Made by a program: the position numbers and the translations under genes. Shown in pieces: positions 1,163 to 45,921 of a DNA stretch of 64,000 bases (its first letter is position 1; each line of letters starts with the position of its first letter). The notes below the pieces were generated by a model. It was not told the DNA's origin. It saw only the letters and a list, made by a program, of their open reading frames with translations, and ran no database searches. This stretch comes from a virus (taxonomy: Duplodnaviria; Heunggongvirae; Uroviricota; Caudoviricetes), in IMG/VR virus record IMGVR_UViG_3300036453_000040; one strand, written 5' to 3'.

Positions 1163-1735
1163 CTAGAAGGATACAGCTGGTGGAACTTGCAAAGCTGGAA
1201 GGTCCTCTACCTCGAAAAATTCTGCTGACTTAAAAGAAAAAGATTTAGCAACTATATTAGAGGGAAACTGTTGTGTTTTAGTATTGTAATCGCGTACAGA
1301 ACCGTTATAGAACCTACGAGAAGCCATGATCTTGTCTTCGGTATCCGTAAGGTCAGCCTGCAACTGTAGGAAGTTCGCACTAGCTTGTAGAACAGGGTAA
1401 TCTTCCGCTACGGCAAACAAAGACTTTAGCGCGCCGTGCATTTCTCCTTCTGCTCGACCGACAGCGGCAGGACCAGAATCAGCTTGGTTAATGGTGTTAG
1501 CACGAGCTTGTGTGACTCTCTCGAAAACACTGCTTTCATGAGTCGCATAGCCTTTAACGGTTGCAATTAAGTTAGGCAGAAGATCTGCGCGCCGCTTAAG
1601 CTGAACAGTTACACCGCTCCATGCTTCCTCCGTCTGAACGCGTGCACCAACAAGTGAGTTGTATAGCCCGACGATAAAAAATCCTACTATTAGAGCTATA
1701 ACTATTAGCACAACTAAAGTAATTACAATTTCCAT
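1163..1735 (-). CDS. lemA: LemA family membrane protein
   Basis: N-terminal TM helix, then a region typical of the LemA family (NSLV..R..V.EAWS.V..QL.RR.DL.PNL). Confidence 0.7.
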   Translation of the reverse strand: MEIVITLVVLIVIALIVGFFIVGLYNSLVGARVQTEEAWSGVTVQLKRRADLLPNLIATVKGYATHESSVFERVTQARANTINQADSGPAAVGRAEGEMHGALKSLFAVAEDYPVLQASANFLQLQADLTDTEDKIMASRRFYNGSVRDYNTKTQQFPSNIVAKSFSFKSAEFFEVEDLPALQVPPAVSF

Positions 1736-3665: not shown

Positions 3666-4742
3666 CTAGGACCATTCTTTCTTGAACTTTTTTTCGCCTT
3701 TTTCTGCAATGAGAGCAAGCTGTTCCTGCTCGGTACGTCCATACTTGTGAGCTAAAGCTGATATTAGCGTATCAAAGTTACGTTGCTTCATGGCATTACG
3801 ATCAGGGTTATTGTTGTAACCATTATAACGTCCAGCATCAACAGCTTTCTTCTCTGAATAAAGGCTTGTAGCTTCAATCTCCGCCGTACGAGCAGACTTA
3901 ATAACGCTATTGTAAGTATCCTCAAGCCTAAGAGGCTCACCATCTGGAGTGAAAATGCTTTTAACAGCATCTTTCTGCGCTTTAACAGCAGCAGCAGCTT
4001 CCTTCTCAATACGAGCGGCTTTGCGTTCAGGTAGCTCAATGCGAGTCTTACGCTTAAGCACATCTATAGGTGCGGACGGGTAGCATACAGTGCAGGCAGA
4101 TTCTCCAGCGTCGTCAACAATCTTAGATTCATCCGAACCTGAATACTGAGGTAGCCAAGCATGACGTGTTGTAGGATAAGTAGTGGAACACGATGTACGA
4201 CTATGAACGTGGCCATTAGTGTTTTCTACTAAGAAAGCCCTCGTCCATCTACCACGCCGTACATATTCATCTTCAAACGGGACAGCTTTATCAAGTATAG
4301 CGGCTGCTTCAGCTTCAAGAATAACCTTAGCAGCTTGTTGCCTATCGAATCCTTCTTGATTTTGCTTTTTATAATAATCGTTATCACGATAGAAGCGGTC
4401 CTTAGGGTCCATGCGTTTCTCGTAATTTTTCATCATATTATCAACTCGATCAACCTCATTAATTTTGCGGTAATACTCGCCATAAATCTCTGCAAGTTGT
4501 TGATCAACCTCAACTGGTGTTTCATTTGCATGAGGGTGCAATAAGGGTTTGTCAGACATAGAATCTAGTTTTTCAGTGAGCGCCTCAGGAGTAAACGCAT
4601 TTGACTTGTCAAGAGCTTCATACTCTTTACGAAGTTTTAAATATCCCTTCACATCTCCATTTTTTTGAAGCAAAAGATACGCAGCACGCATTTCGTTTCG
4701 TGAGCAAAATTTTCCGAGTCCATCATGATAAGGATTAGCCAT
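3666..4742 (-). CDS. hypothetical protein with a coiled-coil N-half and a Cys/His cluster
   Basis: 358-aa ORF. Segment GHVHSRTSCSTTYPTTRHAW...CTVCYP suggests a metal-binding site. Confidence 0.5.
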   Translation of the reverse strand: MANPYHDGLGKFCSRNEMRAAYLLLQKNGDVKGYLKLRKEYEALDKSNAFTPEALTEKLDSMSDKPLLHPHANETPVEVDQQLAEIYGEYYRKINEVDRVDNMMKNYEKRMDPKDRFYRDNDYYKKQNQEGFDRQQAAKVILEAEAAAILDKAVPFEDEYVRRGRWTRAFLVENTNGHVHSRTSCSTTYPTTRHAWLPQYSGSDESKIVDDAGESACTVCYPSAPIDVLKRKTRIELPERKAARIEKEAAAAVKAQKDAVKSIFTPDGEPLRLEDTYNSVIKSARTAEIEATSLYSEKKAVDAGRYNGYNNNPDRNAMKQRNFDTLISALAHKYGRTEQEQLALIAEKGEKKFKKEWS

Positions 4743-6189: not shown

Positions 6190-6567
6190 TTAACCTAAAG
6201 TTACAAGAAGTTTCAGCTTCCAAGAAAGCGGTAGGTCAGCTACTTCAACAAGGTTGCAACCATTTTCCGCAAGAGCTTTGTTAACGCGACCTTCTAGCAC
6301 GGTAGGCATTGCCCATTTTAACGTAGTTCGCCCTAGGTCTATGTTATGTTCAAGCAACCATTTAGCGCATGCTATAACAGGAGTTGAAGAGTTAGAAGCC
6401 GCAGCTTTACGTACGGTAGCATTACCATGATTAAGCGTTAAATCTTCAAGTACAGCGGGGCTAGTCGCTGGAGAAAGTGCACGCCACATAGGCTCCACGG
6501 TCGCAGACACATCTGAGCCAAAAAGAGAAAAAGTTTTTAACTCTTCATACATTGTTGACGGGTTCAT
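6190..6567 (-). CDS. Short or truncated member of the tandem-array family. It has an LRV/HEAT-like repeat and the C-terminal DLPLSWKLK tail
   Basis: Ends ...VADLPLSWKLKLLVTLG. Contains the ATSPAVLEDL...VRKAAASNSSTP repeat pattern. Confidence 0.5.
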   Translation of the reverse strand: MNPSTMYEELKTFSLFGSDVSATVEPMWRALSPATSPAVLEDLTLNHGNATVRKAAASNSSTPVIACAKWLLEHNIDLGRTTLKWAMPTVLEGRVNKALAENGCNLVEVADLPLSWKLKLLVTLG

Positions 6568-6702
6568 TTCATGGCTTCCTAACTGCTACTTAATATGTTT
6601 GCTATCCTTCCCATTATACACAAGAAGCATGATAGTTGCAACTTCATGAAGTTAGCAAGTGAATCTTGTTATTCCGCTATATTCTTTTTTCGTTTCTAGT
6701 AC

Positions 6703-7497
6703 TCACTCTACTATTGCCTTGAGCTTCCACATTAAAGGCAGATCCTTCCAAGGTCCCTCACCAAAAACAGTATTTATATACTGATCAAGACGTGGCTCAA
6801 AATTTTGCAAACTGGAAGGTGACCACTTATGAAAGTCAATAGTCGCCAACAAATAGGCAGCAGCCAACGGGACAGGATATTGCGGGTTGTCATATACCGC
6901 AGAGCTAAAATCTACTTTTGAATTTTTCAGGAATGTTATAACTTCAGTTAAGAGAGAAGTAGAGGCATTGATATTTTGACAAATTCCTTCAAAATCTTCA
7001 AGGTCTTCTACCAAAGTGATATCCATTGAGTTCACATCGTAACGAGCATCAGCAAAAATTATCATATGAAAAAGTCTTTTCTCGTATAATTCTGCTCTTT
7101 CTCTAAATTCTTCGGTACCTACTAGAGGGCTTCGCAAAAGAAGAGACAAAGGCTCAGATCGAATACTACTGAAGTCCCAATCCTCTGTACAGATCAAAAG
7201 GTCAAACATCTCGATAACCGTTTTACATTTCTTGAGTTCTCTACTTGTGTTCCAAAACTTTTTCCTGACAATCTTCTGAACTTGCGCAAAAGTAAGCAAA
7301 GGGTTAAGAAACAACCAAGCAGAAGTACCATGTACTATCATATCCTCTATAATATCACTAGGCAGAGAAAAGTTCATAGCTAAAGACCTATTCAGTTCAA
7401 CAGAATCCTCAGCATAAAAGCGATGGAGAAAGCCAGCAGGAGTCAACGGATCACGCGCTGCACGTAACTTGTCCGTTTGATTAGTAGGATACTCCAT
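6703..7497 (-). CDS. Tandem-array family protein (helical-repeat N-half, conserved C-terminal GEGPWKDLPLMWKLK tail)
   Basis: Paralog of the nine upstream ORFs. Its start overlaps the stop of the 7497..8330 gene by 1 nt. Confidence 0.6.
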   Translation of the reverse strand: MEYPTNQTDKLRAARDPLTPAGFLHRFYAEDSVELNRSLAMNFSLPSDIIEDMIVHGTSAWLFLNPLLTFAQVQKIVRKKFWNTSRELKKCKTVIEMFDLLICTEDWDFSSIRSEPLSLLLRSPLVGTEEFRERAELYEKRLFHMIIFADARYDVNSMDITLVEDLEDFEGICQNINASTSLLTEVITFLKNSKVDFSSAVYDNPQYPVPLAAAYLLATIDFHKWSPSSLQNFEPRLDQYINTVFGEGPWKDLPLMWKLKAIVE

Positions 7498-8330
7498 TAC
7501 TCGGCCAGCATCCTAAGTTTCCACGAAAGAGGCAAGTCCTCCCAAGGGCCATCACCAGTAGTAAGTATTAAATGTTCATTAACTTTAGCTTCAAGTCCTA
7601 GCAAATAAGAAGGAGACCACCTATAATCGTCCAACTTCTCAAGATGATAGCTGGCAGAAAGCTCGATAGGGCAGTTCAAGTTACTTAGCCCAATTTTAGG
7701 CTCGCTGCTTCTATTAGCCTTTTTTCGAAGATGGACCAATAACTCAGGAGGAATACTAGGGTTGTGAAGCAACCCACGGCGCGCCCAAGGGTTAGGGTTC
7801 AAAAAATAAGCCCAATTACTCATATCAAGACGTGCATCTGCAAAAAACTGCTCATCATTAAGAACATGGGCATGCAACTTTACTCTAACGTTAAAGTCTT
7901 CCGCGCTAACATGAGGGTTACATAATAAAGCAGACGTAAAAACATACGACTCCTTGTATGCACCTGTTACCATTAACGCATCAAAAATCTCGATAGTAGA
8001 CTCGAACCTGTCCAGAGCGTCCAAATCAACGCTCAAGGCCGCACTCACGAGAGCTTTAACCTGCATAAGAGTAAGTTGAGGATTAAGAATCAATGTTAGG
8101 TCTAAACCGAAAACTTTAGCAGCAAGTAGCTCTTCTAAAATACCTAGAGGCAACGACGGATTAGCAGCTAGATCGCACCATACTTCGCTGTCATTAAGCT
8201 CGTAAAGTTCACGTAATAGAGCTACAGGCGTCAAAGGGTCAGTTGACGCTCTATACCATGCGTCATAGCCCGAGAATTCCTTATCCCACGTAAATTCACT
8301 CATATAAAGAAGCATACCATGTTCACTCAC
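7497..8330 (-). CDS. Tandem-array family protein
   Basis: C-terminal ...GDGPWEDLPLSWKLRMLAE. Has the DPLTPVALLRELYE and ANPSLPLGILEELL repeat motifs. Confidence 0.6.
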   Translation of the reverse strand: MSEHGMLLYMSEFTWDKEFSGYDAWYRASTDPLTPVALLRELYELNDSEVWCDLAANPSLPLGILEELLAAKVFGLDLTLILNPQLTLMQVKALVSAALSVDLDALDRFESTIEIFDALMVTGAYKESYVFTSALLCNPHVSAEDFNVRVKLHAHVLNDEQFFADARLDMSNWAYFLNPNPWARRGLLHNPSIPPELLVHLRKKANRSSEPKIGLSNLNCPIELSASYHLEKLDDYRWSPSYLLGLEAKVNEHLILTTGDGPWEDLPLSWKLRMLAE

Positions 8331-8402
8331 TAATCACAAGACAGAAAAGCGCATGACACAGTTCCCCGTTACCGTCATAAAAAGTATTTCTAAGATTAAG
8401 AG

Positions 8403-9329
8403 CTACCCAGCAATCATCTTAAGTTTCCACGAAAGAGGTAGGTCCTCCCATGGACCCTCACCAGAAATAAGCGTTAAATGCGCCTCAACTTTTGCCTCAA
8501 GCTCAAGTAAATAGGAGGGCCTCCACTTGTAGGTTTCTAAATTATCAAGATGATAACTAGCAGACAATTCAAATGGACAATTTAAATTATCGTACACCGT
8601 CCCCTTAAGATACTTAAACTCCATTATTTTATAAATAGCTTGAGCAAGAACCCCCTGATCAGTATTAGGGTTAACAATAATGCTACGCGCATGCTCAGAA
8701 TGGTAAGGGTTTCTACTATCAATGGAAGCTAAAGCAAAACTATAATCAATAGCAGTAGGGATAAAACGAGGATCACTACACGCAATCATCTGGAGAAGCA
8801 TATGTTTATAACTTCTGTCTCTTACCCTTATCATAAGATCTTCAGCACTAACCATTGGGCTGCATAGAAGGTTAGAAAAGAAAACGCGATGCTTCGCCTG
8901 CCCAGAAATAACCAAAGTATCAAAAAGCTCAATAACAGTTTTGCACTTATCTAATTCCAAAGGGTTAACCCAATGGTTCAAATTGTTAAAATGCTGAGAA
9001 ATACTGATAACCTGCTTAAAAGTCGTTAAAGGGTTAACGAAAAAATAAGAAAGAGCATTTGGATTTGAGGACGCTTGAGTATGAGCAACCCCATACTCCT
9101 TCAACCTATCAAAAAGAGCAATAAAAACACGCGGTGGCAACGAAGGATTAGTCGCAAGATCAGACAAGTGCTCAGGATAAAGACCCCAAATACCTTCTTC
9201 GCTAAAATCATCGTATAGCTTCTCCAAAAGAGCAGGAGGAGAAAGGGGGTCACGAGAAGCATATTCTCGCTCTTCACTCTTTTTAGGCATAGCAAACGTA
9301 TCAACTACTGCCTGTTCCATCATGCTCAT
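8403..9329 (-). CDS. Tandem-array family protein
   Basis: C-terminal ...GEGPWEDLPLSWKLKMIAG. Extended -10-like element ends 6 nt upstream of the ATG. Confidence 0.65.
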   Translation of the reverse strand: MSMMEQAVVDTFAMPKKSEEREYASRDPLSPPALLEKLYDDFSEEGIWGLYPEHLSDLATNPSLPPRVFIALFDRLKEYGVAHTQASSNPNALSYFFVNPLTTFKQVISISQHFNNLNHWVNPLELDKCKTVIELFDTLVISGQAKHRVFFSNLLCSPMVSAEDLMIRVRDRSYKHMLLQMIACSDPRFIPTAIDYSFALASIDSRNPYHSEHARSIIVNPNTDQGVLAQAIYKIMEFKYLKGTVYDNLNCPFELSASYHLDNLETYKWRPSYLLELEAKVEAHLTLISGEGPWEDLPLSWKLKMIAG

Positions 9330-9335
9330 AAAGTT

Positions 9336-9344
9336 ATCATACCA
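9336..9344 (-). promoter_or_regulatory. Extended -10-like element (TGgTATGAT) ending 6 nt upstream of the ATG of the 8403..9329 array gene
   Basis: Coding-strand sequence CATGGTATGATAACTTT-ATG. Confidence 0.4.
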
Positions 9345-9361
9345 TGTAGGCTGAGAATAAG

Positions 9362-10291
9362 CTACTCAGCAATTATCTTAAGCTTCCACGATAGAGGCAA
9401 ATCCTCCCATGGACCCTCACCAGAAATAAGCGTTAAATGTTCATTAACTTTAGCTTCAAGTCCTAGCAAATAGGAAGGCCTCCACTTATAGTTTTCCATA
9501 TTGTCAACATGGAAAACTGCTGATAACTCAAATGGACAATTTAAGTTGGCATAAGCAAGTTCTCTAGCTTTTGAATATCCTCCAGCGGCACCAACAATTT
9601 TTGCCAAAAAAACAGGATTAGCATGAGGGTTTGCAGTTATTGCTGACGCATGCCCAAAACTAGAAGAATCTGTATTATTTATAAAGCTTAAAGCGAAAAA
9701 ATAATCAGACGCATTAGGAACAAACCGAGGGTCAGAACATAGAAGAGCATAAGCAAGTTTCTCTTTAAGTTCAATGTTTCTAACCCTCAGCGTAAATTCT
9801 TTAGAAGTAACCATCGGGCTGCGCAAAAGGTTAGAAAAGAAGCCACGATCACTTTCTTTTGCAAAAATAATGAGATTATCAAAAATTTCTATAACCGTCT
9901 TGCATGTTTTTATCTTCTCCGAGCTAACATTCTGCTGAATCTCGTTAGCTCGGATGACAATACTTAGAACCTGCTCGAAAGTCACTAAAGGATTCAAAAA
10001 AAGGCAAGAAAGAGCATACAGTTTTGAATCTTGACTAGGTATCAAAGATTCATACTCCATCAGCTTAACAAAAAGTGCAGAGAACACATCGGGAGATAAG
10101 GAAGGATTACGGGCAAGGTCAGACAAATTATAGAGGTAACTATTCGGACGACGAACCTCATCAAAATCATCAAAATAAAGCCGAGACAAAAGATCAGGAG
10201 AGGACAAAGGATCACGAGCAGCGAACGTTCGATCATTTGAATTTATAGGCATAGTAATCGTATCAACTGCCGTCTGTTCCAGTATACTCAT
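9362..10291 (-). CDS. Tandem-array family protein
   Basis: C-terminal ...GEGPWEDLPLSWKLKIIAE. Confidence 0.65.
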   Translation of the reverse strand: MSILEQTAVDTITMPINSNDRTFAARDPLSSPDLLSRLYFDDFDEVRRPNSYLYNLSDLARNPSLSPDVFSALFVKLMEYESLIPSQDSKLYALSCLFLNPLVTFEQVLSIVIRANEIQQNVSSEKIKTCKTVIEIFDNLIIFAKESDRGFFSNLLRSPMVTSKEFTLRVRNIELKEKLAYALLCSDPRFVPNASDYFFALSFINNTDSSSFGHASAITANPHANPVFLAKIVGAAGGYSKARELAYANLNCPFELSAVFHVDNMENYKWRPSYLLGLEAKVNEHLTLISGEGPWEDLPLSWKLKIIAE

Positions 10292-10297
10292 AAAGCC

Positions 10298-10306
10298 ATC
10301 ATACCA
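10298..10306 (-). promoter_or_regulatory. Extended -10-like element (TGgTATGAT) ending 6 nt upstream of the ATG of the 9362..10291 array gene
   Basis: Coding-strand sequence CATGGTATGATGGCTTT-ATG. The 32-nt spacer is conserved between array members. Confidence 0.4.
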
Positions 10307-10323
10307 TGTCGCCCGAGAATAAT

Positions 10324-11250
10324 CTACCCAGTAATTATCTTAAGCTTCCACGAGAGAGGCAGGTCCTCCCACGGACCCTCACCAGAAATAAGTGTTAAGC
10401 GTGCCTCAACTTTTGCCTCAAGTTCAAGTAAATAGGAGGGCCTCCACTTATAACTCTCGATGTTTTCAATATGATAACTAGCAGAAAGCTCAAGCGGGCA
10501 ATTCAAATTATCATAAGCAAGTTCTTCAATTTTTATATGTCCTTCAGCGTTCGCAAAAAGTTCAGCAAGAAAAACAGAATCAGCATGTGGGTTCGTCACA
10601 ATTCCCACCGCACGATCAAAATTACGAGCGTTTTCGCTATCTACAAACTTTGAAGCGAAAACATATTCAAAAGCATCAGGAACAAAGCGAGGATCAGCAT
10701 ATACCGTTGAATAAATAAGCTTATTTTGAAAATCCGTATTCCTAACCCTTGAAATAAAATCTTCATCACTAACCATGGGGCTGCATAGAAGGTTAGAAAA
10801 GAAAATACGATGCCTACCCGTTGCAAAAATCATCATCTTATCAAAAATGTCTATAACCGATTTACATGTCTCTAGCTCCTCCACACTAACAAAATGATTC
10901 AACTCGTTAGCATAACGAACAATACTTAAAACCTGCTCAAAAGTCGTAGAAGGGTTAACGAAAAAACAAGAAAGAGCAGCCAAATGTGGAGTCTGCTTCG
11001 GTCCCGAAGATTCATACCCCATTAAATTCGTAAAAAGAGCAGAACAAACTTCAGGAGGTAAAGAAGGATTACGAGCAAGGTTAGACAAATGGTAAAGATA
11101 AGCACCTGAAGTTTCCTCCCCAGCATAATCATAATACAACCTAGACAAAAGAGCAGCAGAAGAAAGCGGATCTAAAGAAGCATAAGCTCGATTAGCTCTA
11201 CTCATAGGCATGATAATATTATCAACTGCCGCTTGTGCCAATATGCTCAT
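10324..11250 (-). CDS. Tandem-array family protein
   Basis: C-terminal ...GEGPWEDLPLSWKLKIITG. Confidence 0.65.
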   Translation of the reverse strand: MSILAQAAVDNIIMPMSRANRAYASLDPLSSAALLSRLYYDYAGEETSGAYLYHLSNLARNPSLPPEVCSALFTNLMGYESSGPKQTPHLAALSCFFVNPSTTFEQVLSIVRYANELNHFVSVEELETCKSVIDIFDKMMIFATGRHRIFFSNLLCSPMVSDEDFISRVRNTDFQNKLIYSTVYADPRFVPDAFEYVFASKFVDSENARNFDRAVGIVTNPHADSVFLAELFANAEGHIKIEELAYDNLNCPLELSASYHIENIESYKWRPSYLLELEAKVEARLTLISGEGPWEDLPLSWKLKIITG

Positions 11251-11256
11251 AAACTC

Positions 11257-11265
11257 ATCATATCA
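11257..11265 (-). promoter_or_regulatory. Extended -10-like element (TGaTATGAT) ending 6 nt upstream of the ATG of the 10324..11250 array gene
   Basis: Coding-strand sequence CATGATATGATGAGTTT-ATG. Confidence 0.4.
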
Positions 11266-11282
11266 TGTTGCCAGATAATAAT

Positions 11283-12191
11283 CTACTCAGCAATTATCTT
11301 AAGCTTCCACGATAGAGGCAAGTCCTCCCAAGGGCCATCACTTTGAATTTTCTTAAGGTACTCATCAGCTTTAAGATTAAAAGCCTGCAAATAGGAGGGC
11401 CTCCACTGATATTCGTCCATATTCTTAAGGATAAAATGAGCGGACAACTCTATAGGACAATTCAAGTTTTCGTATATCCATAGTTCAACGCTTTCCTGCC
11501 CTCCCGCATACCTAATAGCTTCAGCTAAAAACTCAGCACTAGAATGCACGTTCGCAAGAATACTTAGTGCATGGTCAAACTCAGCATAGCTCCCCTGAAC
11601 TAAGGAGTCCAAAGCAGAACTATAATCAGCATCACTGGGAATGAAGCGTGAACTAGAATAAATTGTCCAGTTATCAAGTTTCGCTTTAACCTCCTCATCT
11701 AGAATTCTTAACTGAAAATCTTCATCACTAATCAAAGGACTATACAATAACTTAGAAAGAAAAAGCTTACGTCTAGTCTCCAACAAAGGGACAAGTCCAT
11801 CAAAAATCTCAATAGCCGTGTTGCAAGACCTAAGTTCCTTAACCCCTGCAACATTCTTTAAGTTAGTCGCATTACAAATAAGATCCAGTAACTGCTCAAA
11901 AGTAACCAAAGGACTAGAGAAAAAACTGGAAAGCATCTCCAATGACATATGTTTCTCAGGGAACTTATTCTCAACTTCTTTTAAGCTTACGAGAAGAGGG
12001 ATGAGCATATCAGAAGGCAACGAAGGATTACACGCAAGATTAGACAAATGATAATCATGAAAAACTAAACCATCATGGTTCGCATAATCATAGAACAACC
12101 TCCTAAGCAAAGTAGGCGAAGACAACGGGTCACGAGAAGCATGATCTAAGTCAGTTCTACTAATGGGCATAGCCATGTAATCAGAAGTCAT
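11283..12191 (-). CDS. Tandem-array family protein
   Basis: C-terminal ...SDGPWEDLPLSWKLKIIAE. Its start abuts the stop of the upstream paralog. Confidence 0.65.
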   Translation of the reverse strand: MTSDYMAMPISRTDLDHASRDPLSSPTLLRRLFYDYANHDGLVFHDYHLSNLACNPSLPSDMLIPLLVSLKEVENKFPEKHMSLEMLSSFFSSPLVTFEQLLDLICNATNLKNVAGVKELRSCNTAIEIFDGLVPLLETRRKLFLSKLLYSPLISDEDFQLRILDEEVKAKLDNWTIYSSSRFIPSDADYSSALDSLVQGSYAEFDHALSILANVHSSAEFLAEAIRYAGGQESVELWIYENLNCPIELSAHFILKNMDEYQWRPSYLQAFNLKADEYLKKIQSDGPWEDLPLSWKLKIIAE

Positions 12192-13130
12192 TTACTTACC
12201 ACTCTCATAAGGTCGCACCATCTCAAGCTTCCACGATAAAGGTAAATCACCCCATGGTCCCTCGCCTTGCGTTCTCACAAGGTACTCGTCAACTTTTGCC
12301 TCAAGCCCTACCACGTATGAAAGACGCCACTTATACTCGCGTAATCTTTCGCTATGGTACGAAGCCGAAAGCTCAATAGGGCAAACCAAATTTTCATAAA
12401 CAAAAGCTTTATGCGCTCCCTTATGCTTAAGGACCTTAACTAAAAACTCAGGGCTAGCATTCTTATTCATGAGAACGCCCAATACCCCGCGTTCAAGCTT
12501 ACCCTGCCCGTTTGTTATAAAGCTAAACGCAGCATCATAATCAGCAGCGCTAGGAACGAAACGTGGATTATCTAAAAGATCCCAGTTGTCAAGTTTAGAG
12601 CGAACATCTTTGTCTTCCACTCTAAACTTAAAATCTTCATCACTAACCAGAGGACTGCACAGCAGCTTAGTTAGAAAAGAATTGCTTCTTTTAGGTTTCA
12701 CAACAAGGATAAGCTTGTCAAAGACCTCAACAACTGTTTTGCAAGAGCTTAATTCAGCAGGGCTTTCTAAGTCTTCATCGAATATTTTACTAATACAAAT
12801 TGCACTTAGCTCCTGTTCAAAGGTCGTCAAAGGATTAGAGAAAAAGTAGGAAAAAATCTCCATAGCTAAAGTTTTATCTAGGAACCTGTCTCCAAGTACT
12901 TGCACCTTATCCAAAAGAGAATCAAAAATATCTTGAGGCAAGGCAGGGTTCGAAGAAAGGTCCGACAAGTAAACAGGGAACTCGTCCAAATCCACTAAAT
13001 TGTTACCCATAGCAAAGATCTTCCTCAAAAGGGAAGGATGAGTCAACGGGTCCGCAGCAGCAGCCCTTATATCATAAAACTCGTCAGGGATAGCGATGTT
13101 ATCTACTGCCGTCTCGCTTATCGCTATCAT
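12192..13130 (-). CDS. Tandem-array family protein
   Basis: C-terminal ...GEGPWGDLPLSWKLEMVRPYESGK. Confidence 0.65.
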   Translation of the reverse strand: MIAISETAVDNIAIPDEFYDIRAAAADPLTHPSLLRKIFAMGNNLVDLDEFPVYLSDLSSNPALPQDIFDSLLDKVQVLGDRFLDKTLAMEIFSYFFSNPLTTFEQELSAICISKIFDEDLESPAELSSCKTVVEVFDKLILVVKPKRSNSFLTKLLCSPLVSDEDFKFRVEDKDVRSKLDNWDLLDNPRFVPSAADYDAAFSFITNGQGKLERGVLGVLMNKNASPEFLVKVLKHKGAHKAFVYENLVCPIELSASYHSERLREYKWRLSYVVGLEAKVDEYLVRTQGEGPWGDLPLSWKLEMVRPYESGK

Positions 13131-13136
13131 AAACCC

Positions 13137-13145
13137 ATCATATCA
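13137..13145 (-). promoter_or_regulatory. Extended -10-like element (TGaTATGAT) ending 6 nt upstream of the ATG of the 12192..13130 array gene
   Basis: Same architecture as the other array spacers. Confidence 0.4.
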
Positions 13146-13162
13146 TGTTGCCCGAGAATAAT

Positions 13163-14074
13163 CTACATGGTAATCATCTTAAGCTTCCACGATAGAGGCA
13201 ATTCCTCCCACTGGTCAACACCAGAAATAAGCGTAAGATACTCGTTAGCCTTAAGATTAAGAGTAAGCAAAGCAGAAGGCCTCCACCTATACTCATCTAG
13301 ATTTTCCAGAATAGCATGTGCAGATAACTCAATAGGGCAATTCAAGTTTTCGTATACCCACGCTTCAGCACTCTCCTCCCCCGCTGTATAACTGATAACG
13401 TTAGTTAGAAACTCGATGCTAGAATTCGGGTTAGCTAAAATACTTAACCCATGGTCGAACTCATCAGGCCTAACAGAGACCAGAGATACCAAAGCATCAC
13501 GATAGTCAGCATCACTAGGGACAAAGCGTACGCTAGAACAAATTGTCCATTCGTGAAGCTTAGGCCTAACGTTAACGTCCGCAATCCTCAACTGAAAATC
13601 CTCATCGCTAACAAACGGGCTACATAACAGTCTAGTCAGAAAAACCTTATGATTATAATCAGCTAAAGGAACTAGCCTATCAAAAATCTCAACTACAGTC
13701 CTCGAAGACCTAACCTTACTACCGTCTACGATATTTTTCACATAAGCAGAATTACACACAATATATAGTACCTGCTCAAATGTTGTCAAAGGGTTAAAGA
13801 AAAAGTTAGAAAGCATGCCTGCTGACATAGCCATCATCAAGGGAAACTTCTCCTCCACATCTTTCAACGTCAAAAGCAGACCCGTGAAAACATCAAAAGG
13901 TAAGGAAGGATTACGAGCAAGATCAGACAAATGGTAGTCTTGAAAAGAATAACCACTTTGCTTCTCGTAATCATAAAACAACCTCCTCAGTAAAGCAGGA
14001 GAAGACAACGGGTCAGAAGAAGCATTATTCAAGTCAGTTCTACGAGCAGGCATTACAACGTGATCAGTAATCAT
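13163..14074 (-). CDS. Tandem-array family protein
   Basis: C-terminal ...GVDQWEELPLSWKLKMITM. Very similar to the adjacent 14075..15019 paralog. Confidence 0.65.
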   Translation of the reverse strand: MITDHVVMPARRTDLNNASSDPLSSPALLRRLFYDYEKQSGYSFQDYHLSDLARNPSLPFDVFTGLLLTLKDVEEKFPLMMAMSAGMLSNFFFNPLTTFEQVLYIVCNSAYVKNIVDGSKVRSSRTVVEIFDRLVPLADYNHKVFLTRLLCSPFVSDEDFQLRIADVNVRPKLHEWTICSSVRFVPSDADYRDALVSLVSVRPDEFDHGLSILANPNSSIEFLTNVISYTAGEESAEAWVYENLNCPIELSAHAILENLDEYRWRPSALLTLNLKANEYLTLISGVDQWEELPLSWKLKMITM

Positions 14075-15019
14075 TTACTTGTCACTCTTATAAAATCTTA
14101 CCATTTCAAGTTTCCATAATAGAGGTAAGTCCTCCCAAGGACCCTCACCAGAAATAAGCGTTAAGCGCGCCTCAACTTTCGCCTCAAGCTCGACCAAATA
14201 CGAGGGCCTCCACTTGTACTCGTTTAATCTTTCCATATGATATGAGGCTGAAAGCTCAATAGGGTAATTCAAGTTTTCGTATACCCACATCTCAACACTC
14301 TCCCGCCCCGCCGCATAACCGTGCGCCTGAACTAGAAACTCAGGCGTAGAATTCGGATTCTCCATGATACTCAGTTTATCATCGAAGGTAACCATGTCAA
14401 ACGAAGCCAACGCAGCTAAAGCGCCCTCATAGTCAGCATCACTAGGAGTGAACCGTGCGCTAGAGCAAAGACCCCACTCATGAAGCTTAGGTCTAACATC
14501 ATCATCCATAATCCTCACCTGAAAGTCCTCATTGCTAACCCACGAGCTACACAATAGCCTAGTCAAGAAACCCTTATGGTCATCGTTAGCTAAAGGAACC
14601 AGCCTATCGAAAATCTCAACTACAGTCTTCGAAGACTTGACTTTATCAACGTCTACAATATTTTTCACATGGACAGAGTTAGAAACAACATACAACACCT
14701 GCTCAAATGTTGTCGAAGAGTTCAAAAGAAAATTAGAAAGCAGGTCAATTGACTGCGAGGGAATGGAAGAGGACTTGTCCTCCACCTCTTTCAGCTTCAA
14801 GAGTAGCGCCGTGAAAACATCAGGAGGTAACGCAGGATTCCGCGCAAGATCAGACAAATGTGAATCATGAAAAGTATTTCCGCTATGGTCACTGTAATCA
14901 TAGTACAGTCTCCTCAGAAGAGCGGGAGATGACAACGGATCAGAAGAAGCATTATTCAAGTCAGCTCCACTAATAGGCATCACAACGTGATCGACCGCTA
15001 ACCTATCCTGTGTATGCAT
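14075..15019 (-). CDS. Tandem-array family protein
   Basis: C-terminal ...GEGPWEDLPLLWKLEMVRFYKSDK. Confidence 0.65.
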   Translation of the reverse strand: MHTQDRLAVDHVVMPISGADLNNASSDPLSSPALLRRLYYDYSDHSGNTFHDSHLSDLARNPALPPDVFTALLLKLKEVEDKSSSIPSQSIDLLSNFLLNSSTTFEQVLYVVSNSVHVKNIVDVDKVKSSKTVVEIFDRLVPLANDDHKGFLTRLLCSSWVSNEDFQVRIMDDDVRPKLHEWGLCSSARFTPSDADYEGALAALASFDMVTFDDKLSIMENPNSTPEFLVQAHGYAAGRESVEMWVYENLNYPIELSASYHMERLNEYKWRPSYLVELEAKVEARLTLISGEGPWEDLPLLWKLEMVRFYKSDK

Positions 15020-15025
15020 AAAACA

Positions 15026-15034
15026 ATTATACCA
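15026..15034 (-). promoter_or_regulatory. Canonical extended -10 element (TGGTATAAT) ending 6 nt upstream of the ATG of the 14075..15019 gene
   Basis: Coding-strand sequence CTGGTATAATTGTTTT-ATG. It sits in the 20-nt spacer after the stop of the upstream paralog. Confidence 0.45.
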
Positions 15035-15039
15035 GAAGC

Positions 15040-15984
15040 TTACGCATTGTACAAGCTGGCAACCATCTTAAGTTTCCATGATAGAGGCAGGTCCTCCCAA
15101 GGCCCCTCACCTTGCATGCTTGTAAGATACTCGTCAAGTTTCAACTTAAGGCCAAGCACATAAGAAGGCCTCCACCTATAAGACTCTAAATTCTTAAGAT
15201 GAAAACTAGCAGAAAGCTCAATAGGGCAATTCAAATTCTGATATACCCAATTAGAAAGAACATAACCGTCCTCCGCATGCCCTAATACTTCAACCAAAAA
15301 CGCAGGACTAGCATTTTCATTTAAAATAATACTTCTTACACTATTAGAGAGACTCCCATCAACCAAAGCCTTTAAGAACCGCTCATAATCAACAGGAGTA
15401 GGAATAAAACGCGAGTTTATAACAATATTCCACAAGTCAAGTGTAAGCGGCTGCTCCTTGAAATCAATTCGTGCTCGGAAATCTTCACCACTAACCAGCG
15501 GACTACATAGCAGCATGGACATAAAATACTTATGCCTAAAATCAAGAAGCGGGCGCAGACCATCAAAAAGCTCAACAACAGTTCTAGAAGACCGAAGCTC
15601 TTCAAGACCTACAATATCACGCAAATTCGCAGAATCACAAACAATACTTAACACCTGCTCAAAAGTCGTTAAAGGACTAAGAAAAAAGTTAGACAAAAAA
15701 TCATACGCCATAGGCGGCATAGGAGCGACCGAAAGCATGTCCTCCGCTTGCTTCAGTTTCACTAAAAGAATGCTGAATAAGTCAACTGGCAACGCAGGGT
15801 TAAAGGCAAGCTCCGCCAAACTATAGCACTCCGTCATACCTAAAACATCATGGCTGTTATGATCATCAAAAATCTGCCAAAGTACAGCAGGAGGAGTCAA
15901 CGGGTCATTAGCAGCGCTCATTAAGTCATTGCTACCTGTAGGCATAGCGAAAGCCGCAACCACTGTATTTTCCGCCCTAGTCAT
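15040..15984 (-). CDS. Tandem-array family protein (first, promoter-proximal member)
   Basis: C-terminal ...GEGPWEDLPLSWKLKMVASLYNA. Confidence 0.65.
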   Translation of the reverse strand: MTRAENTVVAAFAMPTGSNDLMSAANDPLTPPAVLWQIFDDHNSHDVLGMTECYSLAELAFNPALPVDLFSILLVKLKQAEDMLSVAPMPPMAYDFLSNFFLSPLTTFEQVLSIVCDSANLRDIVGLEELRSSRTVVELFDGLRPLLDFRHKYFMSMLLCSPLVSGEDFRARIDFKEQPLTLDLWNIVINSRFIPTPVDYERFLKALVDGSLSNSVRSIILNENASPAFLVEVLGHAEDGYVLSNWVYQNLNCPIELSASFHLKNLESYRWRPSYVLGLKLKLDEYLTSMQGEGPWEDLPLSWKLKMVASLYNA

Positions 15985-16128
15985 AAAACAACTCTACCAC
16001 GGAACGAACCCAATATACAAGCCCAATATTCGCTTGCCGTCCGCATGGGTATTACTATCAGAGCACAAGCGAATATGCTGATGAGAGCATATTTAAAGCC
16101 TATTTTCTGCCCTGCATTTGACAAGGTA

Positions 16129-16137
16129 TGGTATAAT
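16129..16137 (+). promoter_or_regulatory. Extended -10 element (TGgTATAAT) upstream of the zinc-ribbon/Vsr-like gene
   Basis: ttgacaaggtatggtataattagaat. The ttgaca is too close (8 nt) to act as a -35, so activity would rely on the extended -10. Confidence 0.4.
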
Positions 16138-16180
16138 TAGAATATGCCTCACCTATACAACCACGGAGCTTGGTAACCAC

Positions 16181-17872
16181 ATGACAACATATCGCGCACC
16201 CAAAGCAGGCATGTCGCTAGCAGAAAAACGCCCCGACCTAGCCGCCATGTGGCACCCCACGGCCAATGGAGACATAACGCCCGCCGACATAGGTGCAAGA
16301 GCAAGACAAGTATTCTGGTGGAGCTGTGACTGCGGGAATGACTTTGAGCGGGATTTATGTCTCCTTGCTAATGCTGCTGTCATATGCGATAACTGCAAGA
16401 AAGCCAGCCCGAAATCTCTACTTAAGGGTAAGAAAGTTTTGGATATACCCCTGTTAGCAAAACATTGGGACCCAGCGAACCCTGACGTAGCCTCCACTAC
16501 AACGGTAGGGTCTCACATAGAATTCTCATGGGTCTGTGACGTTGGCAACAAGTACCCTAGAGCTGTGCACATTGAGTGGGGGTCAGAAGGCAAGTGTCCC
16601 ATATGTACCAATAAAAGGGTACTCGAAGGATTCAACGATCTTGCTAGTCGGCGTCCTGACTTTCTAGCTGAATGGGATTACAACGAGAATGCCCTTATTG
16701 ACCCAACACAAATAACTTATGGTCATACTGAACCTGTGGCTTGGAAATGTAAGCAGGGACATAAGTGGTCCGTGTCCCCTGCTTCTAGAGTTTCTCGAAA
16801 AAGTGGATGCGGAGTATGCTCAAACAAGTTTCTTCTGAGCGGCTTCAACGACCTTAAAACTCAATGGCCTGAAATTGCGAAATATTACGACAATATCAGA
16901 AACCCTAAAGACTCCAGCAATATTGGCCCAGGCAATATGAGGACGGACTTATGGTGGGTCTGCGACCTTAACCATGGCTATACACGTTCCATCGCAGAAC
17001 AAATACGATTTGGCCCAAAATGTGAAATCTGTCGTAATAAGATTTTGTTACGAGGTTTTAACGATCTAGCCACTGTTGACCCGAAGTTAGCTGCTGAATG
17101 GGATGAAGAAAAGAATGGTATAGCAGCAAGTGATTTTATCTATAAGCATCATAACAAAAACTTCTGGTGGAAGTGCGTAGCTGAAGGCCATTCATGGGAA
17201 ACCTACTTTACAAATCGCTGTAGGACAAAACAGCCTACTAATTGCCCTTATTGTTCCAACAAGCTTTTTCTCCCAGAGTTTAATTCCCTCTCAGCTATGC
17301 GCCCTGATATAGCAGAAGAACTAGATGAGCCAGACATTACGGGCTGGGAGATACCTTTCGGTAGCCCTAACAATTATAACTGGAAATGTTCAGAGGGCCA
17401 TATTTGGAATGTAAGCGTTTCTCAGCGTTGCCATAACAACAGCGGCTGTATGCTTTGCTCAAAGTCAAATACTTCTGTAATCGAAACTAGACTTAGAACG
17501 CTAGTTATTGAGGGCGGACTTATGACAAATATCCCAGAAGATGATAACACGCGTATCATGATCCCTTTCGGCAATAGGAAATACATGCGCGTTGATATCG
17601 TGGGGAAAGTAGCTGGCAAAAAGTGCGTGATTGAATATGATAGCTTTCATTGGCATCAAGAAAAGTATGAGATAGATAACAGGAAAACAAACCTCCTGCT
17701 CAATGACGGCTATATTGTAATTCGTATCCGTGAGCAAAAACTATTAACGCTTGAAGATGTACCCGCCTCACCCTCCTACGTTGAGCTATTAGACGTTCAC
17801 CCTAATAGCCATAATGGGATTGCTAGGATTATGGAACGCGTAGAAGAAGCGCTTAAAACCATTATGGCCTAA
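16181..17872 (+). CDS. Protein with about 7 repeated zinc-ribbon modules and a C-terminal Vsr/DUF559-like endonuclease-fold domain
   Basis: Repeated motifs GFNDL...W(D)...C..GH.W...R.....C..C. C-terminal RVDIVGK...CVIEYDSFHWH...DNRKTNLL..GYIVIRIRE matches the DUF559/Vsr-like pattern. Start moved to the Met downstream of the promoter element. Confidence 0.55.
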   Translation: MTTYRAPKAGMSLAEKRPDLAAMWHPTANGDITPADIGARARQVFWWSCDCGNDFERDLCLLANAAVICDNCKKASPKSLLKGKKVLDIPLLAKHWDPANPDVASTTTVGSHIEFSWVCDVGNKYPRAVHIEWGSEGKCPICTNKRVLEGFNDLASRRPDFLAEWDYNENALIDPTQITYGHTEPVAWKCKQGHKWSVSPASRVSRKSGCGVCSNKFLLSGFNDLKTQWPEIAKYYDNIRNPKDSSNIGPGNMRTDLWWVCDLNHGYTRSIAEQIRFGPKCEICRNKILLRGFNDLATVDPKLAAEWDEEKNGIAASDFIYKHHNKNFWWKCVAEGHSWETYFTNRCRTKQPTNCPYCSNKLFLPEFNSLSAMRPDIAEELDEPDITGWEIPFGSPNNYNWKCSEGHIWNVSVSQRCHNNSGCMLCSKSNTSVIETRLRTLVIEGGLMTNIPEDDNTRIMIPFGNRKYMRVDIVGKVAGKKCVIEYDSFHWHQEKYEIDNRKTNLLLNDGYIVIRIREQKLLTLEDVPASPSYVELLDVHPNSHNGIARIMERVEEALKTIMA

Positions 17873-21237: not shown

Positions 21238-21870
21238 TTAAAGCCTAGCGAGAAGTTCTTGTTTTTTCAGGTCGTACTCTTCTGGGGTGATGAAACCTTT
21301 TTCTCTCATTTCGCCAAGTTCGTTCAATTGTTTGAGAATAAGGTCTGGTCCTGAGAGCGGTGCGCTCATGTTCTGAACTGGTGGCAGTGGAGGTGCCACG
21401 AGAGGCCCTGTGCTGCCTGCTAAGGGGTTTTGACTTGCAGGTCTGCCCGAGTACCCATCGGGTTGCCTTTGTCGCCCCTTGGCGGCATCAGCGGTCAGTT
21501 GGCGGACAAGCTTAGTAAACTTAGCTCCCGCACTTCTACCAACCCAGTTATAAGAAGTTTCATCACCTTTACCATAAAGAGTGAATACTCCGAAGAAGAT
21601 CTTCGTGCTGAACTCTACTGAGCTAATGGTCTCATATGGGTAGTCTTGGTTTTCTCTAAAAACCCATCCATCATGAATGAAGAGTAAACGCTCGTTGGTT
21701 GCTACGACGATACCTCTGCCCCGCTTGTTGAGTCTGCTACCTGTGATGATACCAAGTACGCTTTCATCATTGTTAAGGTGTTGTCGTAGGCGACGTAATT
21801 CACGGTTTGAACCAAAGTTAAAAGCATTAGCTTTAGCGGCTTTTTTGATTTGTTCATCTAAGTTAGGCAT
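21238..21870 (-). CDS. Bacterial PH-like domain protein with a Pro-rich linker and C-terminal SHOCT domain
   Basis: C-terminal LKQLNELGEMREKGFITPEEYDLKKQELLARL is a SHOCT-type motif. The N-half resembles a bacterial PH (YokE-like) domain. Confidence 0.5.
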   Translation of the reverse strand: MPNLDEQIKKAAKANAFNFGSNRELRRLRQHLNNDESVLGIITGSRLNKRGRGIVVATNERLLFIHDGWVFRENQDYPYETISSVEFSTKIFFGVFTLYGKGDETSYNWVGRSAGAKFTKLVRQLTADAAKGRQRQPDGYSGRPASQNPLAGSTGPLVAPPLPPVQNMSAPLSGPDLILKQLNELGEMREKGFITPEEYDLKKQELLARL

Positions 21871-34958: not shown

Positions 34959-35000
34959 CACCCCCTATACCTACTATGGTATAGGGGGTGCCTTGTTTTT
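34959..35000 (+). terminator. Rho-independent terminator (13-bp GC-rich stem plus T-run)
   Basis: caccccctatacc-tactat-ggtatagggggtg ccttgttttt. Confidence 0.55.
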
Positions 35001-45813: not shown

Positions 45814-45921
45814 TATAAACTAATTATAGCAGACAATAGTTAACTTCAAGTACATTAATAGCTTTGTAAAGCGATTAGTCATGGTAAGATAGTAACCTAA
45901 CTAATTATTTTGGAAGAACTT

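Follow-up and report, generated by a model that had tools for sequence, protein, structure and literature searches.

Leucine-rich repeat variant (LRV) proteins, whose prototype is the LRV protein of Azotobacter vinelandii, are built from a regular repeat of about 24 residues and form a right-handed superhelix of alternating α- and 3-10 helices. Viral multigene families in tandem arrays are represented by the ankyrin-repeat/PRANC (F-box-like) host-range proteins of poxviruses and by MGF360/505 of ASFV. In Bacillus phage G, a zinc-ribbon family has expanded to about 35 copies (PMC7824862), and phage anti-defence loci undergo segmental amplification driven by the homing endonuclease SegB of T6 (PMC13096335). 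In the putative phage genome described here, eleven adjoining genes, about 10 kb in all, encode copies of a helical-repeat protein that has not been described before, with a fixed tail and a diverging remainder. We tentatively regard this array as a clade-specific multigene family of LRV-type α-solenoid proteins in a large phage, probably of Actinobacteria.

In the window, i.e. the whole stretch of 64,000 nucleotides that was analysed, eleven ORFs on the minus strand fill positions 6190-15984 (Table 1), and 355 of these 9,795 nt (3.6%) are non-coding. The ORFs are real genes. All eleven proteins could be aligned (alignment A1, mean column identity 49%) and were matched by the family HMM (E = 4e-27 to 6e-143), so that paralogy is far above chance; the preliminary description of a tandem array of diverged paralogs with hardly any non-coding DNA was thus correct. 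For paralog 9, the gene call of JGI comprises 272 aa and begins at an internal ATG, which may be the true start. As had also been noted before, neither a signal peptide nor a TM-like segment was found in a Kyte-Doolittle 19-mer scan of the array proteins (maximum values 0.96-1.62, with P, N or a charged residue always inside the segment). With net charges of -1 to -19, the proteins are predicted to be soluble, acidic and cytoplasmic.

Table 1. Positions of the paralogs, predicted promoters and the divergent neighbour in the window.
Feature	Position	Strand	Remarks
Paralog 1, 'long' subfamily	15040..15984	-	314 aa; ortholog absent from related phage L003 (<=52% identity)
Paralog 2, first gene of a two-gene unit	14075..15019	-	314 aa; L003 2559-3503 at 93% identity
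Paralog 3	13163..14074	-	303 aa; ATG abuts TAA of paralog 2; spacer, promoter and SD all absent
Paralog 4, opens second two-gene unit	12192..13130	-	312 aa; ortholog L003 5402-6340 (73%)
Paralog 5	11283..12191	-	302 aa; ATG abuts TAA of paralog 4
Paralog 6	10324..11250	-	308 aa; ortholog L003 9239-10165 (87%)
Paralog 7	9362..10291	-	309 aa; ortholog L003 10198-11127 (90%)
Paralog 8	8403..9329	-	308 aa; ortholog L003 11209-12138 (77%); protein modelled with AF2
Paralog 9, 'compact' subfamily	7497..8330	-	277 aa; subfamily common to the L003, L004 and L006 lineages
Paralog 10, compact subfamily	6703..7497	-	264 aa; 1-nt overlap with paralog 9
Paralog 11, stand-alone C-terminal module	6190..6567	-	125 aa; last two repeats and LPLSWKLK helix
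Extended -10 of paralog 1 (TGGTAGAGT)	15991..15999	-	6 nt upstream of ATG; leaderless-type promoter
Extended -10 of paralog 2 (TGGTATAAT)	15026..15034	-	6 nt upstream of ATG
Extended -10 of paralog 4 (TGATATGAT)	13137..13145	-	6 nt upstream of ATG
Extended -10 of paralog 6	11257-11265	-	pattern TGnTAnnnT-N6-ATG
Extended -10 of paralog 7	10298-10306	-	pattern TGnTAnnnT-N6-ATG
Extended -10 of paralog 8	9336-9344	-	pattern TGnTAnnnT-N6-ATG
Divergent neighbour	16118..17872	+	six DUF4379 treble-clef zinc fingers and a DUF559 (Vsr/REase-like) domain

Six array genes possess their own predicted extended -10 promoter at the spacing of leaderless transcripts. The pattern TGnTAnnnT-N6-ATG was observed ten times in comparison to 2.5 expected occurrences, a number reached in none of 100 shuffles, and six of the ten sites lie at start codons of the array. 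The same pattern recurs in related arrays, and the site upstream of paralog 2 was additionally scored as sigma-70-like with TGTACA at -35. Judged by the shape of these promoters, the array may be expressed early.

The N-terminal motifs A.DPL[ST].P.LL..LY and LA.NP[SA]LP.D, which had been ascribed to all members, occur in the ten full-length genes and are missing from the 125-aa gene. An AF2 model of paralog 8 (pLDDT 89.6) showed an all-α solenoid of 21 helices, arranged as stacked helical hairpins with significant structural matches to HEAT/ARM proteins. With E = 8e-18 to 1e-10, the family profile (A2) matched proteins with multiple repeats, and eight of ten profile-matched proteins that were checked (E down to 2e-10) pass the Pfam threshold for LRV and/or LRV_2. 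In an hhalign comparison with P0061, three repeats aligned in register (probability 56%, E = 1.1e-4). The best matches in BFVD were 'Leucine rich repeat variant' proteins of uncultured Caudovirales, at a low structural similarity (TM ~0.3). Together, the model, the LRV profile matches, hhalign and BFVD confirm the suggested LRV or HEAT-like α-solenoid, and the repeat unit (N/D-P-x-T/S-P-x-x-x-L) is, judged by these profile comparisons, homologous to bona fide LRV repeats. None of the array members reached the gathering score of Pfam LRV (PF01816) or LRV_2 (PF25591); only paralog 9 came near the threshold (LRV_2, 19.1 bits, cut-off 27), and the remaining members scored <=13 bits or gave no match. 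Precomputed 'faint' LRV matches exist for two relatives. The curated thresholds of Pfam, PHROGs, NCBIfam and PADLOC were likewise passed by no array member, in agreement with the earlier remark that the family was not recognised as a described one. The profile searches returned no housekeeping family either, so that this check does not refute the reading as an accessory function.

The most constrained part of the proteins comprises the last ~95 residues, which consist of two repeats, a long helix and a terminal L-P-L-x-W-K-L helix. Only this heptad pattern is identical in all eleven members; the block 'GEGPWEDLPLSWKLK', previously regarded as strictly invariant, varies in the genes starting at 13163 (GVDQWEE), 12192 (GEGPWGD), 6703 (GEGPWKD) and 6190 (NLVEVAD). 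The invariant residues are encoded by several synonymous codons, and selection at the conserved tail acts on the protein. The motif persists even in the most distant relatives (P0052, P0056, P0108), whose remaining sequence can hardly be aligned. Furthermore, the 125-aa form is conserved at the array end in several related phages as an orthologous subfamily (41-62% identity), and it folds by itself when modelled alone (pLDDT 86.3). As this conserved gene encodes just the module, the module is argued to have a function of its own. An exhaustive search found the module joined only to LRV-type bodies, unlike the portable F-box/PRANC adaptor domains, which speaks against the adaptor reading given below.

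The pairwise identity among the eleven paralogs ranges from 21 to 64%, and DNA repeats with a period of 906-962 bp across the array confirm tandem duplication, which included the duplication of a two-gene unit. Orthology, DNA repeats and the tree agree with repeated duplication and subsequent diversification, as proposed in the preliminary description; the ~300-aa 'long' subfamily, originally a single copy, has reached 8-10 members in this lineage. Two of the formerly proposed groups are real, namely 11283/13163/14075 (50-64% identity) and 8403/9362/10324 (52-58%). The genes at 12192 and 15040 do not form a group, since the identity between them is 45%, and 15040 has a closer match in 11283 (48%), in whose clade it was placed in the tree. 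Also, the presumed recent duplication of 13163 and 14075 has to be dismissed: at 64% identity and a dS of 0.82, its age roughly equals that of the divergence from the related phage L003 (flank dS 0.85). In total, paralog dS values were 0.7-1.5.

The array is under purifying selection, with dN/dS ratios of 0.14-0.46 for orthologs and paralogs. The central solenoid (residues ~181-240) is least constrained, and pN/pS reaches its minimum at residues 241-308. The assumed diversifying function is weakly suggested by dN/dS values that exceed the value of the flank gene by a factor of 2-3 and yet are always below 1. A dN/dS > 1, i.e. positive selection, was detected in no 30-codon window of the array, so that these values do not demonstrate an arms race.

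Among 1.8 billion proteins, the family has about 30 representatives, which stem without exception from a few metagenomes, and it was found neither in 185,579 GTDB species genomes nor in IMG/VR or GenBank phages. Related phage contigs carry an array at the same locus with partial orthology, and the copy numbers across related genomes were 11, 14, at least 7 and at least 9. Copy number and content differ, as is expected for accessory dynamics, and they turn over much faster than the flanking genes change: the best matches of array proteins were 27-51% identical where the flanks showed 56-76% or 68-93%. Distinct subfamilies are nevertheless retained as orthologs across phages. Ortholog dS values of 0.07-0.72, compared to 0.85 for the flank, indicate mosaic exchange.

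The rIIA protein encoded on the contig matched phrog_612 (E = 2.7e-76, residues 7-661), and its best tblastn matches were from Streptomyces phages. An ORF at 3666-4742 (358 aa) gave tblastn matches only to phages of Actinobacteria. Additional PHROG matches in the window were phrog_15500, phrog_2433, phrog_1297 and phrog_5429; the contig also carries cargo typical of huge phages. The array is surrounded by genes of nucleotide metabolism and host interaction, and no capsid, terminase, tail or other structural phage gene was found within the 64-kb window. Cell-like genes (MFS transporter, VIT1, HSP20) occur in relatives. Based on the non-structural hallmarks, the case for a large uncultivated phage, which the preliminary description had not recognised, is strong but not proven, because of the window's lack of structural genes and the cell-like genes of the relatives. 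The host probably belongs to the Actinobacteria, as judged by rIIA, the actinophage-only ORFs, the LysX-type LysRS of the contig and the leaderless promoters. Synteny of the divergent DUF4379 and DUF559 neighbour with the array was seen in three lineages (identities of 82% and 68%); this neighbour is a putative nuclease and may be part of the array system.

With regard to function, we infer with some reserve that the array may encode a repertoire of binder or adaptor proteins, which are expressed early, act in the cytoplasm and serve host takeover or counter-defence. Each unit would be transcribed by the host RNA polymerase directly after infection, yielding a set of such proteins. Individual paralogs would differ in their targets owing to the variable central solenoid, and a common function would reside in the conserved C-terminal module: either all members could dock to the same host or phage partner, or the paralogs and the short form could associate with one another. 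Such a repertoire could track host variation, and the amplification of counter-defence loci has a precedent in phages (PMC13096335). At E <= 0.01, no PADLOC model and no known anti-defence family was matched by the DUF4379 neighbour or by the four array members that were searched, which speaks against this reading.

A different explanation is a dosage or redundancy family, in which all copies fulfil one function, e.g. the sequestration of one abundant host factor; we consider this unlikely. The same low probability is given to its evolutionary part, a past 'accordion' amplification followed by drift, in which the C-terminal module is functional and the body a tolerant scaffold. A dN/dS below 1 throughout without any positively selected window, the similar promoters that the copies keep, the syntenic putative nuclease and the experimental precedent of phage loci amplified segmentally under defence pressure (PMC13096335) are consistent with dosage. 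However, the copies are old, strongly diverged and still all under purifying selection, and their subfamilies are kept as orthologs, whereas pure dosage arrays normally collapse or remain near-identical. It is rather improbable that the invariant tail is a structural C-terminal cap only, with paralogs of independent, unrelated functions and no common partner. Compared to internal repeats, the capping elements of repeat proteins generally show a higher conservation, and the terminal motif was predicted as a well-packed helix in both models (pLDDT > 90), so that the invariance could be purely structural and not that of a docking site; the maintenance of the module as a stand-alone gene and the survival of the motif in barely alignable relatives argue against this.

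In large phiKZ-like phages and giant myoviruses, inner-body or head-internal proteins form families of tandem paralogs, and the array proteins might also be virion-associated or ejected, with the module as incorporation signal or common assembly interface. Their acidic and soluble character and the combination of a constant module with a variable body, which suits a shared packaging determinant, would fit. This is nevertheless decidedly improbable, since the array is not located among structural genes, the host-type leaderless promoters suggest non-late expression, and neither a structural PHROG match nor a recognisable protease-processing motif was found. Immunity loci are typically tandem arrays of diverged cytoplasmic paralogs, and an immunity-protein array had been among the options named earlier. 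A bacterial or plasmid contig encoding immunity proteins for polymorphic toxins would agree with the cell-like genes in relatives, but it is extremely improbable: the window harbours rIIA, actinophage-specific ORFs and huge-phage cargo, the family is missing from the GTDB genomes, and neither a toxin gene nor an orphan toxin module is present within or beside the array. Given the phage genome, the absence of an adjacent toxin and the lack of any PADLOC match, this reading is ruled out in its usual sense.

If the binder or adaptor repertoire is compared to known systems, LRV proteins share the short helical repeats with an N/D-P-x-[ST]-[PL]-x-x-x-L core and the α-solenoid. However, the repeats of the array appear to be irregularly spaced, with about 28-63 residues between the cores instead of the regular 24-residue unit, the array family has no Fe-S domain, and its C-terminal LPLxWKL module is missing from ordinary LRV proteins.

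The ankyrin/PRANC and MGF families resemble the locus in tandem arrays, a variable helical-repeat body, a conserved C-terminal element and copy-number turnover. This likeness is an architectural analogy only and not homology: the repeats are LRV and not ankyrin, the host is bacterial, and the module has no relation to F-box/PRANC. Pfam searches with the array proteins gave neither an F-box nor a PRANC domain, which excludes homology to these adaptors. It is very doubtful, by this analogy, that the array is the phage counterpart of the poxvirus host-range repertoire. In that case, the LPLxWKL module would plug the paralogs into one host machine, e.g. a protease of the Clp or Pup-proteasome type or some other actinobacterial hub, each LRV solenoid would bind its own defence or housekeeping protein of the host so that this is destroyed or sequestered, and the 125-aa module on its own would act as a regulator of the hub or as a competitor for it. 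Turnover of the array would then set the host range.

As in the SegB-driven amplification in T6, a tandem repeat expansion adjoins a putative nuclease gene. The SegB repeats are recent, near-identical and lab-selected, whereas the array is ancient and diverged, and the gene beside it does not encode a Seg enzyme of the GIY-YIG type. With Bacillus phage G, the locus has in common a large lineage-specific expansion of a small non-enzymatic family in a big phage genome; it differs in fold and family, and its copies are strictly tandem, possess their own predicted promoters and belong to an expansion that can be traced across related genomes.

It is well supported that the eleven minus-strand ORFs at 6190-15984 form a fast-turnover multigene family of a phage, that they encode LRV-type solenoid proteins whose C-terminal module is constrained and autonomous, and that individual genes have leaderless promoters in front of them. 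The encoded proteins comprise 314, 314, 303, 312, 302, 308, 309, 308, 277, 264 and 125 aa (from gene 15040 down to gene 6190; genes are named by their lower coordinate). They are separated by gaps of 20, 0, 32, 0, 32, 32, 32, 72, -1 and 135 nt, and therefore only 3.6% of the array is non-coding. The tandem array of paralogs proposed in the preliminary description was borne out, since all eleven proteins could be aligned (mean column identity 49%; pairwise identity 21-64%) and matched the family HMM (E = 4e-27 to 6e-143), and since DNA repeat families with a period of 906-962 bp occur throughout the array. One of these (D9, spacing 1883 bp) crosses gene junctions, which indicates duplication of a two-gene unit (14075+13163 versus 12192+11283). 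Two proposed relationships did not hold: genes 12192 and 15040, which had been placed in one group, share 45% identity and are also separated in the tree, and the pair 13163/14075, regarded as a recent duplication, shows a dS of 0.82 and is therefore not recent.

An assembly artefact as the origin of the array was rejected because the copies are diverged and because two independent assemblies (contigs L001 and L003) contain the same related array. All array proteins are acidic. As had been stated before, neither signal peptides nor TM segments were found in them, and a membrane or secreted location was therefore rejected. Plus-strand ORFs of 87-122 aa located antisense to array genes are almost certainly not genes; they appear 'conserved' in L001 and L003 only because they overlie conserved array coding sequence.

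The array members, their C-terminal module, the stand-alone module gene and the phage array of 11-14 genes matched no family above threshold in Pfam, PHROGs, NCBIfam or PADLOC; the best curated score was obtained with LRV_2 (19.1 bits, cut-off 27). A PDB sequence profile search with the family also gave no match. A HMMER search of 1.84 billion representatives yielded about 30 full-length relatives (E ≤ 1.6e-21), below which the weaker matches covered, in several stretches, the repeat units only. Eight of ten repeat-matching proteins checked contained LRV and/or LRV_2 (Pfam) above threshold (profile E down to 2e-10), and hhalign against one repeat-matching protein placed three repeats in register (probability 56%, E = 1.1e-4). 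Due to these repeat-unit matches and the register, the array proteins are divergent LRV-type solenoids with irregular spacing and six cores of the type N/D-P-x-x-x-x-x-x-L. The N-terminal motifs previously ascribed to all members occur in all ten full-length genes and are missing in the 125-aa gene at the array end, which consists of the C-terminal module alone. Neither the fold class nor the idea of multigene families of viral repeat proteins is new; a full-text literature search for 'leucine rich repeat variant' in combination with phage yielded no paper.

The C-terminal module is specific to the array family and was not found on any non-LRV body in the HMMER search of the 1.84 billion representatives. 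Its ~95 residues form two repeats (NPNxSxEFL and NLNCPIELSA), a Trp-containing turn (YKWRPSYLL), a long helix (LEAKV...) and a terminal helix (D-L-P-L-S-W-K-L-K). The tail had been described as strictly conserved, which applies to L-P-L-x-W-K-L (identical in 11 of 11 proteins) and not to the GEGPWED part, which differs in four genes. The terminal motif persists even in the remotest relatives, the bodies of which are barely alignable ('DLPLSWKL' in proteins P0052 and P0056; 'IPLLYKLK' in P0108). Decay was rejected as the origin of the 125-aa gene because orthologs of 123-135 aa (41-62% identity) occupy the corresponding position in related contigs. The fold of the lone 125-aa protein was predicted with confidence (pLDDT 86.3, pTM 0.74).

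P0108, the most distant relative (tail 'IPLLYKLKLVAE'), is encoded on contig L023 from a different sample (JGI 3300006059) and is preceded by an LRV-like ORF without the tail; this pair hints that tandem LRV genes form a broader set with greater divergence. A 96-aa ORF elsewhere in the window matched the family HMM weakly (E = 7.7e-6), by means of the LRV-like repeat 'ASNDPNSYPKVLETIF'. The LPLxWKL tail is missing, and the product may be a small LRV-like protein unrelated to the array family.

The dN/dS ratios (pairwise Nei-Gojobori) were 0.14-0.46 for eight ortholog pairs of the window and L003 and 0.28-0.46 between the closest array paralogs, and therefore every array copy is kept by purifying selection. 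Since omega of the flanking DUF4379 gene is 0.15, constraint on the array is 2-3 times weaker than on this neighbour. The least constrained part is residues ~181-240 (pN/pS 0.43-0.64), and the most constrained parts are residues 136-180 and the final ~70. No positive selection was detected in the array by pairwise or sliding-window Nei-Gojobori analysis, in which no 30-codon window exceeded 1. The invariant residues of the tail are encoded by several synonymous codons (Leu by CTG, TTA, TTG and CTA; Lys by AAA and AAG), and paralogs show a dS of ~0.8-0.95 in their C-terminal part. It is therefore the protein sequence of the tail that is conserved, and homogenisation by gene conversion was rejected.

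Family members are rare: 31 were found among 5.8 billion proteins, all of them metagenomic. The 185,579 GTDB species genomes and IMG/VR gave pattern matches only and no relatives, megablast and tblastn gave no match in 50,697 GenBank phage records, and a metagenome scan contributed extra contigs from only two further JGI datasets. All longer related contigs have a tandem array, and its locus is the same in each. The distal five genes of the window are collinear orthologs of L003 genes (75-90% identity). The proximal part was turned over: gene 15040 has no ortholog in L003, which in turn possesses extra copies. In the tree, compact subfamilies of 264-284 aa are common to all lineages, and a 'long' clade (~300-318 aa) is a lineage-specific expansion from one copy to 8-10: L006 has a single member, the window eight and L003 ten. 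Best-hit identities were 27-51% for the array in comparison to 56-76% (L004) or 68-93% (L006) for the flanks. Between the array of the window (6190-15984) and that of L003 (2559-14412), ortholog dS was 0.07-0.72, and up to 2.1 for a doubtful pair, in comparison to 0.85 for the adjacent DUF4379 gene. These values indicate recent exchange of array segments between phages, and the array can therefore be described as a mosaic whose segments have differing histories.

Six array genes without a Shine-Dalgarno (SD) sequence possess the motif TGnTAnnnT exactly 6 nt before the ATG, which is the geometry of an extended -10 promoter with a transcript starting at the start codon. The strict pattern TGnTAnnnT-N6-ATG was observed ten times in the window (2.5 expected; ten reached in 0 of 100 shuffles), six times at array start codons and once at ORF 33990. 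Related arrays also contain such promoter-gene units (7 of 13 genes in L003, three in L006, one in L004), and the host polymerase may transcribe the units early in infection. No spacer separates the ATGs of 13163 and 11283 from the TAA of the gene before, and the overlap of 6703 with 7497 is 1 nt; this suggests coupled translation. Terminators were not enriched in the window (7 found, 9 expected). Several non-array genes (starts at 5568, 33990 and 58102, as well as 20194, 27089 and 45277) likewise have an extended -10 box at leaderless or near-leaderless spacing, and SD-like sequences were found in about 20 of the 62 window ORFs. Leaderless mRNAs are frequent in Actinobacteria, and these bacteria and their phages typically use both leaderless and SD starts.

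The genome carrying the array encodes an rIIA homolog (phrog_612, E = 2.7e-76, residues 7-661), the best tblastn matches of which are from Streptomyces BE-cluster phages (~30% identity); no rIIB was recognised. A further ORF (phrog_15500 and phrog_2433) gave tblastn matches only in phages of Mycobacterium, Microbacterium, Arthrobacter, Gordonia, Rhodococcus and Streptomyces. Because of rIIA and such actinophage-only ORFs, a low-GC actinobacterial chromosome was rejected as the source. The MoxR-like ATPase matched phrog_1297 (2e-55) and another ORF phrog_5429. The recognisable remaining genes are cargo of the kind typical of huge phages: NrdE/NrdI, dCMP deaminase, NT5C, NUDIX, DNA methylase and a RadA-like protein, as well as RNA ligase, CCA-adding enzyme, HAD_SAK_2, two ADP-ribosyltransferases, an ADP-ribosylglycohydrolase, flotillin, LemA and the CAP-Fn3 protein; about half of the ORFs are orphans. 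These matches and the cargo argue for a large uncultivated phage (contig at least 110 kb), known from the non-structural genes in the window. A related contig (L024) encodes VIT1, an MFS sugar-transporter-like protein, FeS_assembly_P and HSP20; the MFS transporter, VIT1 and HSP20 are a caveat to this assignment, and so is the result that none of the genes in the 64-kb window is structural. The window LysRS scored highest with the LysRS half of actinobacterial LysX (620 bits), and tRNA and Rfam scans of the 64 kb gave no match. Together with the RNA ligase, the CCA-adding enzyme and the HAD_SAK_2 domain protein, the LysRS makes up a cargo for translation and RNA repair. RadA failed as an organism marker, with ~45% identity to scattered recovered GTDB matches, mainly Actinobacteria (Williamsia, Streptosporangiales) and Chloroflexi (Chloroflexia, Dehalococcoidia). 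From the affinities of rIIA, the ORFs and LysRS and from the promoter architecture we infer that the host probably belongs to the Actinobacteria.

In three phage lineages the DUF4379-DUF559 gene is the neighbour of the array (82% and 68% identity), and its product had no match in PADLOC or NCBIfam. It could be a candidate nuclease in array rearrangement, or this could be plain synteny. The ADP-ribosyltransferases and the glycohydrolase could form a writer/eraser set for ADP-ribosylation of host or phage proteins, and the CAP-Fn3 protein, of an architecture unusual for a phage, could be a fibre or decoration protein.

Features of the window and of related metagenomic contigs (L numbers); window positions unless a contig is named
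Feature	Position (strand)	Remarks
Arrays of L001, L003		13 full-length genes and short one; adjoin DUF4379 gene (82% identity to that of window)
Array of L006		at least 7 genes; adjoins NrdE (93% over 91-aa fragment) and DUF4379 (68%)
Array of L004/L024		at least 7 genes, short form and two outliers; then downstream genes of window (56-76% identity)
Array of L015		at least 6 genes
Antisense ORFs	12586-12849, 13038-13391, 14532-14870, 15458-15826 (+)	
P0108 and preceding ORF	L023 2-550 and 564-1451	
96-aa ORF	46631-46921 (-)	
DUF4379-DUF559 protein	16118-17872 (+); L003 3-1772; L006 320-2044	six DUF4379 treble-clef zinc fingers, C-terminal DUF559 (Vsr/REase-like)
rIIA homolog	52428-54707 (-)	
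MoxR-like AAA ATPase	49868-50992 (-)	flanks rIIA
DUF2201 VWA/metallopeptidase protein	54864-56543 (+)	flanks rIIA
ORF with actinophage matches	3666-4742	
LysRS	43700-45193 (-)	
RNA ligase	42829-43491 (-)	
CCA-adding enzyme	34999-36465 (-)	
HAD_SAK_2 domain protein	45910-46452 (+)	
ADP-ribosyltransferases	36514-37317 (-), 58870-59655 (+)	ADPrib_exo_Tox
ADP-ribosylglycohydrolase	28533-29573 (-)	
CAP-Fn3 protein	21984-26984 (-)	1666 aa; N-terminal CAP (cysteine-rich secretory protein), then ~14 fibronectin type III
Flotillin/SPFH	31077-32885 (-)	membrane-associated
LemA	1163-1735 (-)	membrane-associated
bPH_3-SHOCT	21238-21870 (-)	membrane-associated
VIT1, MFS, FeS_assembly_P, HSP20	L024 8817-13661	

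Tentatively, the array may be a repertoire of cytoplasmic binders or adaptors for host takeover or counter-defence. The basis of this reading, which we prefer to its rivals at somewhat less than even odds, is the architecture, the genomic dynamics, the analogy to the poxvirus ANK/PRANC and ASFV MGF families, and the amplification of counter-defence loci, which has been demonstrated in phages (PMC13096335). The variable solenoid would choose the target, and the constant C-terminal module would supply a shared interaction, either with a common host or phage partner or by association of the paralogs and the short form with each other.

Against such a repertoire counts that PADLOC revealed no link of the array to a known anti-defence family. 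The absent signal of positive selection counts against it as well, and a dosage or redundancy family is a rival explanation. The terminal helix may also be a simple cap, and the array proteins would then share a purely structural element and have unrelated functions. Virion-internal proteins are a further rival. A cellular immunity array is very unlikely.

The array is a clean case: ~10 kb of a phage genome are given to an undescribed family, and its orthologs, lineage-specific expansion, mosaic exchange and promoters of individual genes can all be followed in a few related metagenomic phages. Should the paralogs recognise different host targets via a common module, they would represent a new class of host-takeover or counter-defence proteins for Actinobacteria, and also a scaffold library of small helical binders supplied by nature. 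Should they turn out to be redundant or structural, the array would still document the growth of large phages by tandem duplication. To our knowledge, hardly any repertoire of a comparable, traceable kind has been documented in phages. Characteristic of large eukaryotic DNA viruses are repeat-protein multigene families whose adaptor end is constant and which set host range and immune evasion, and it is the poxvirus and ASFV families that are taken here as analogues of the array.
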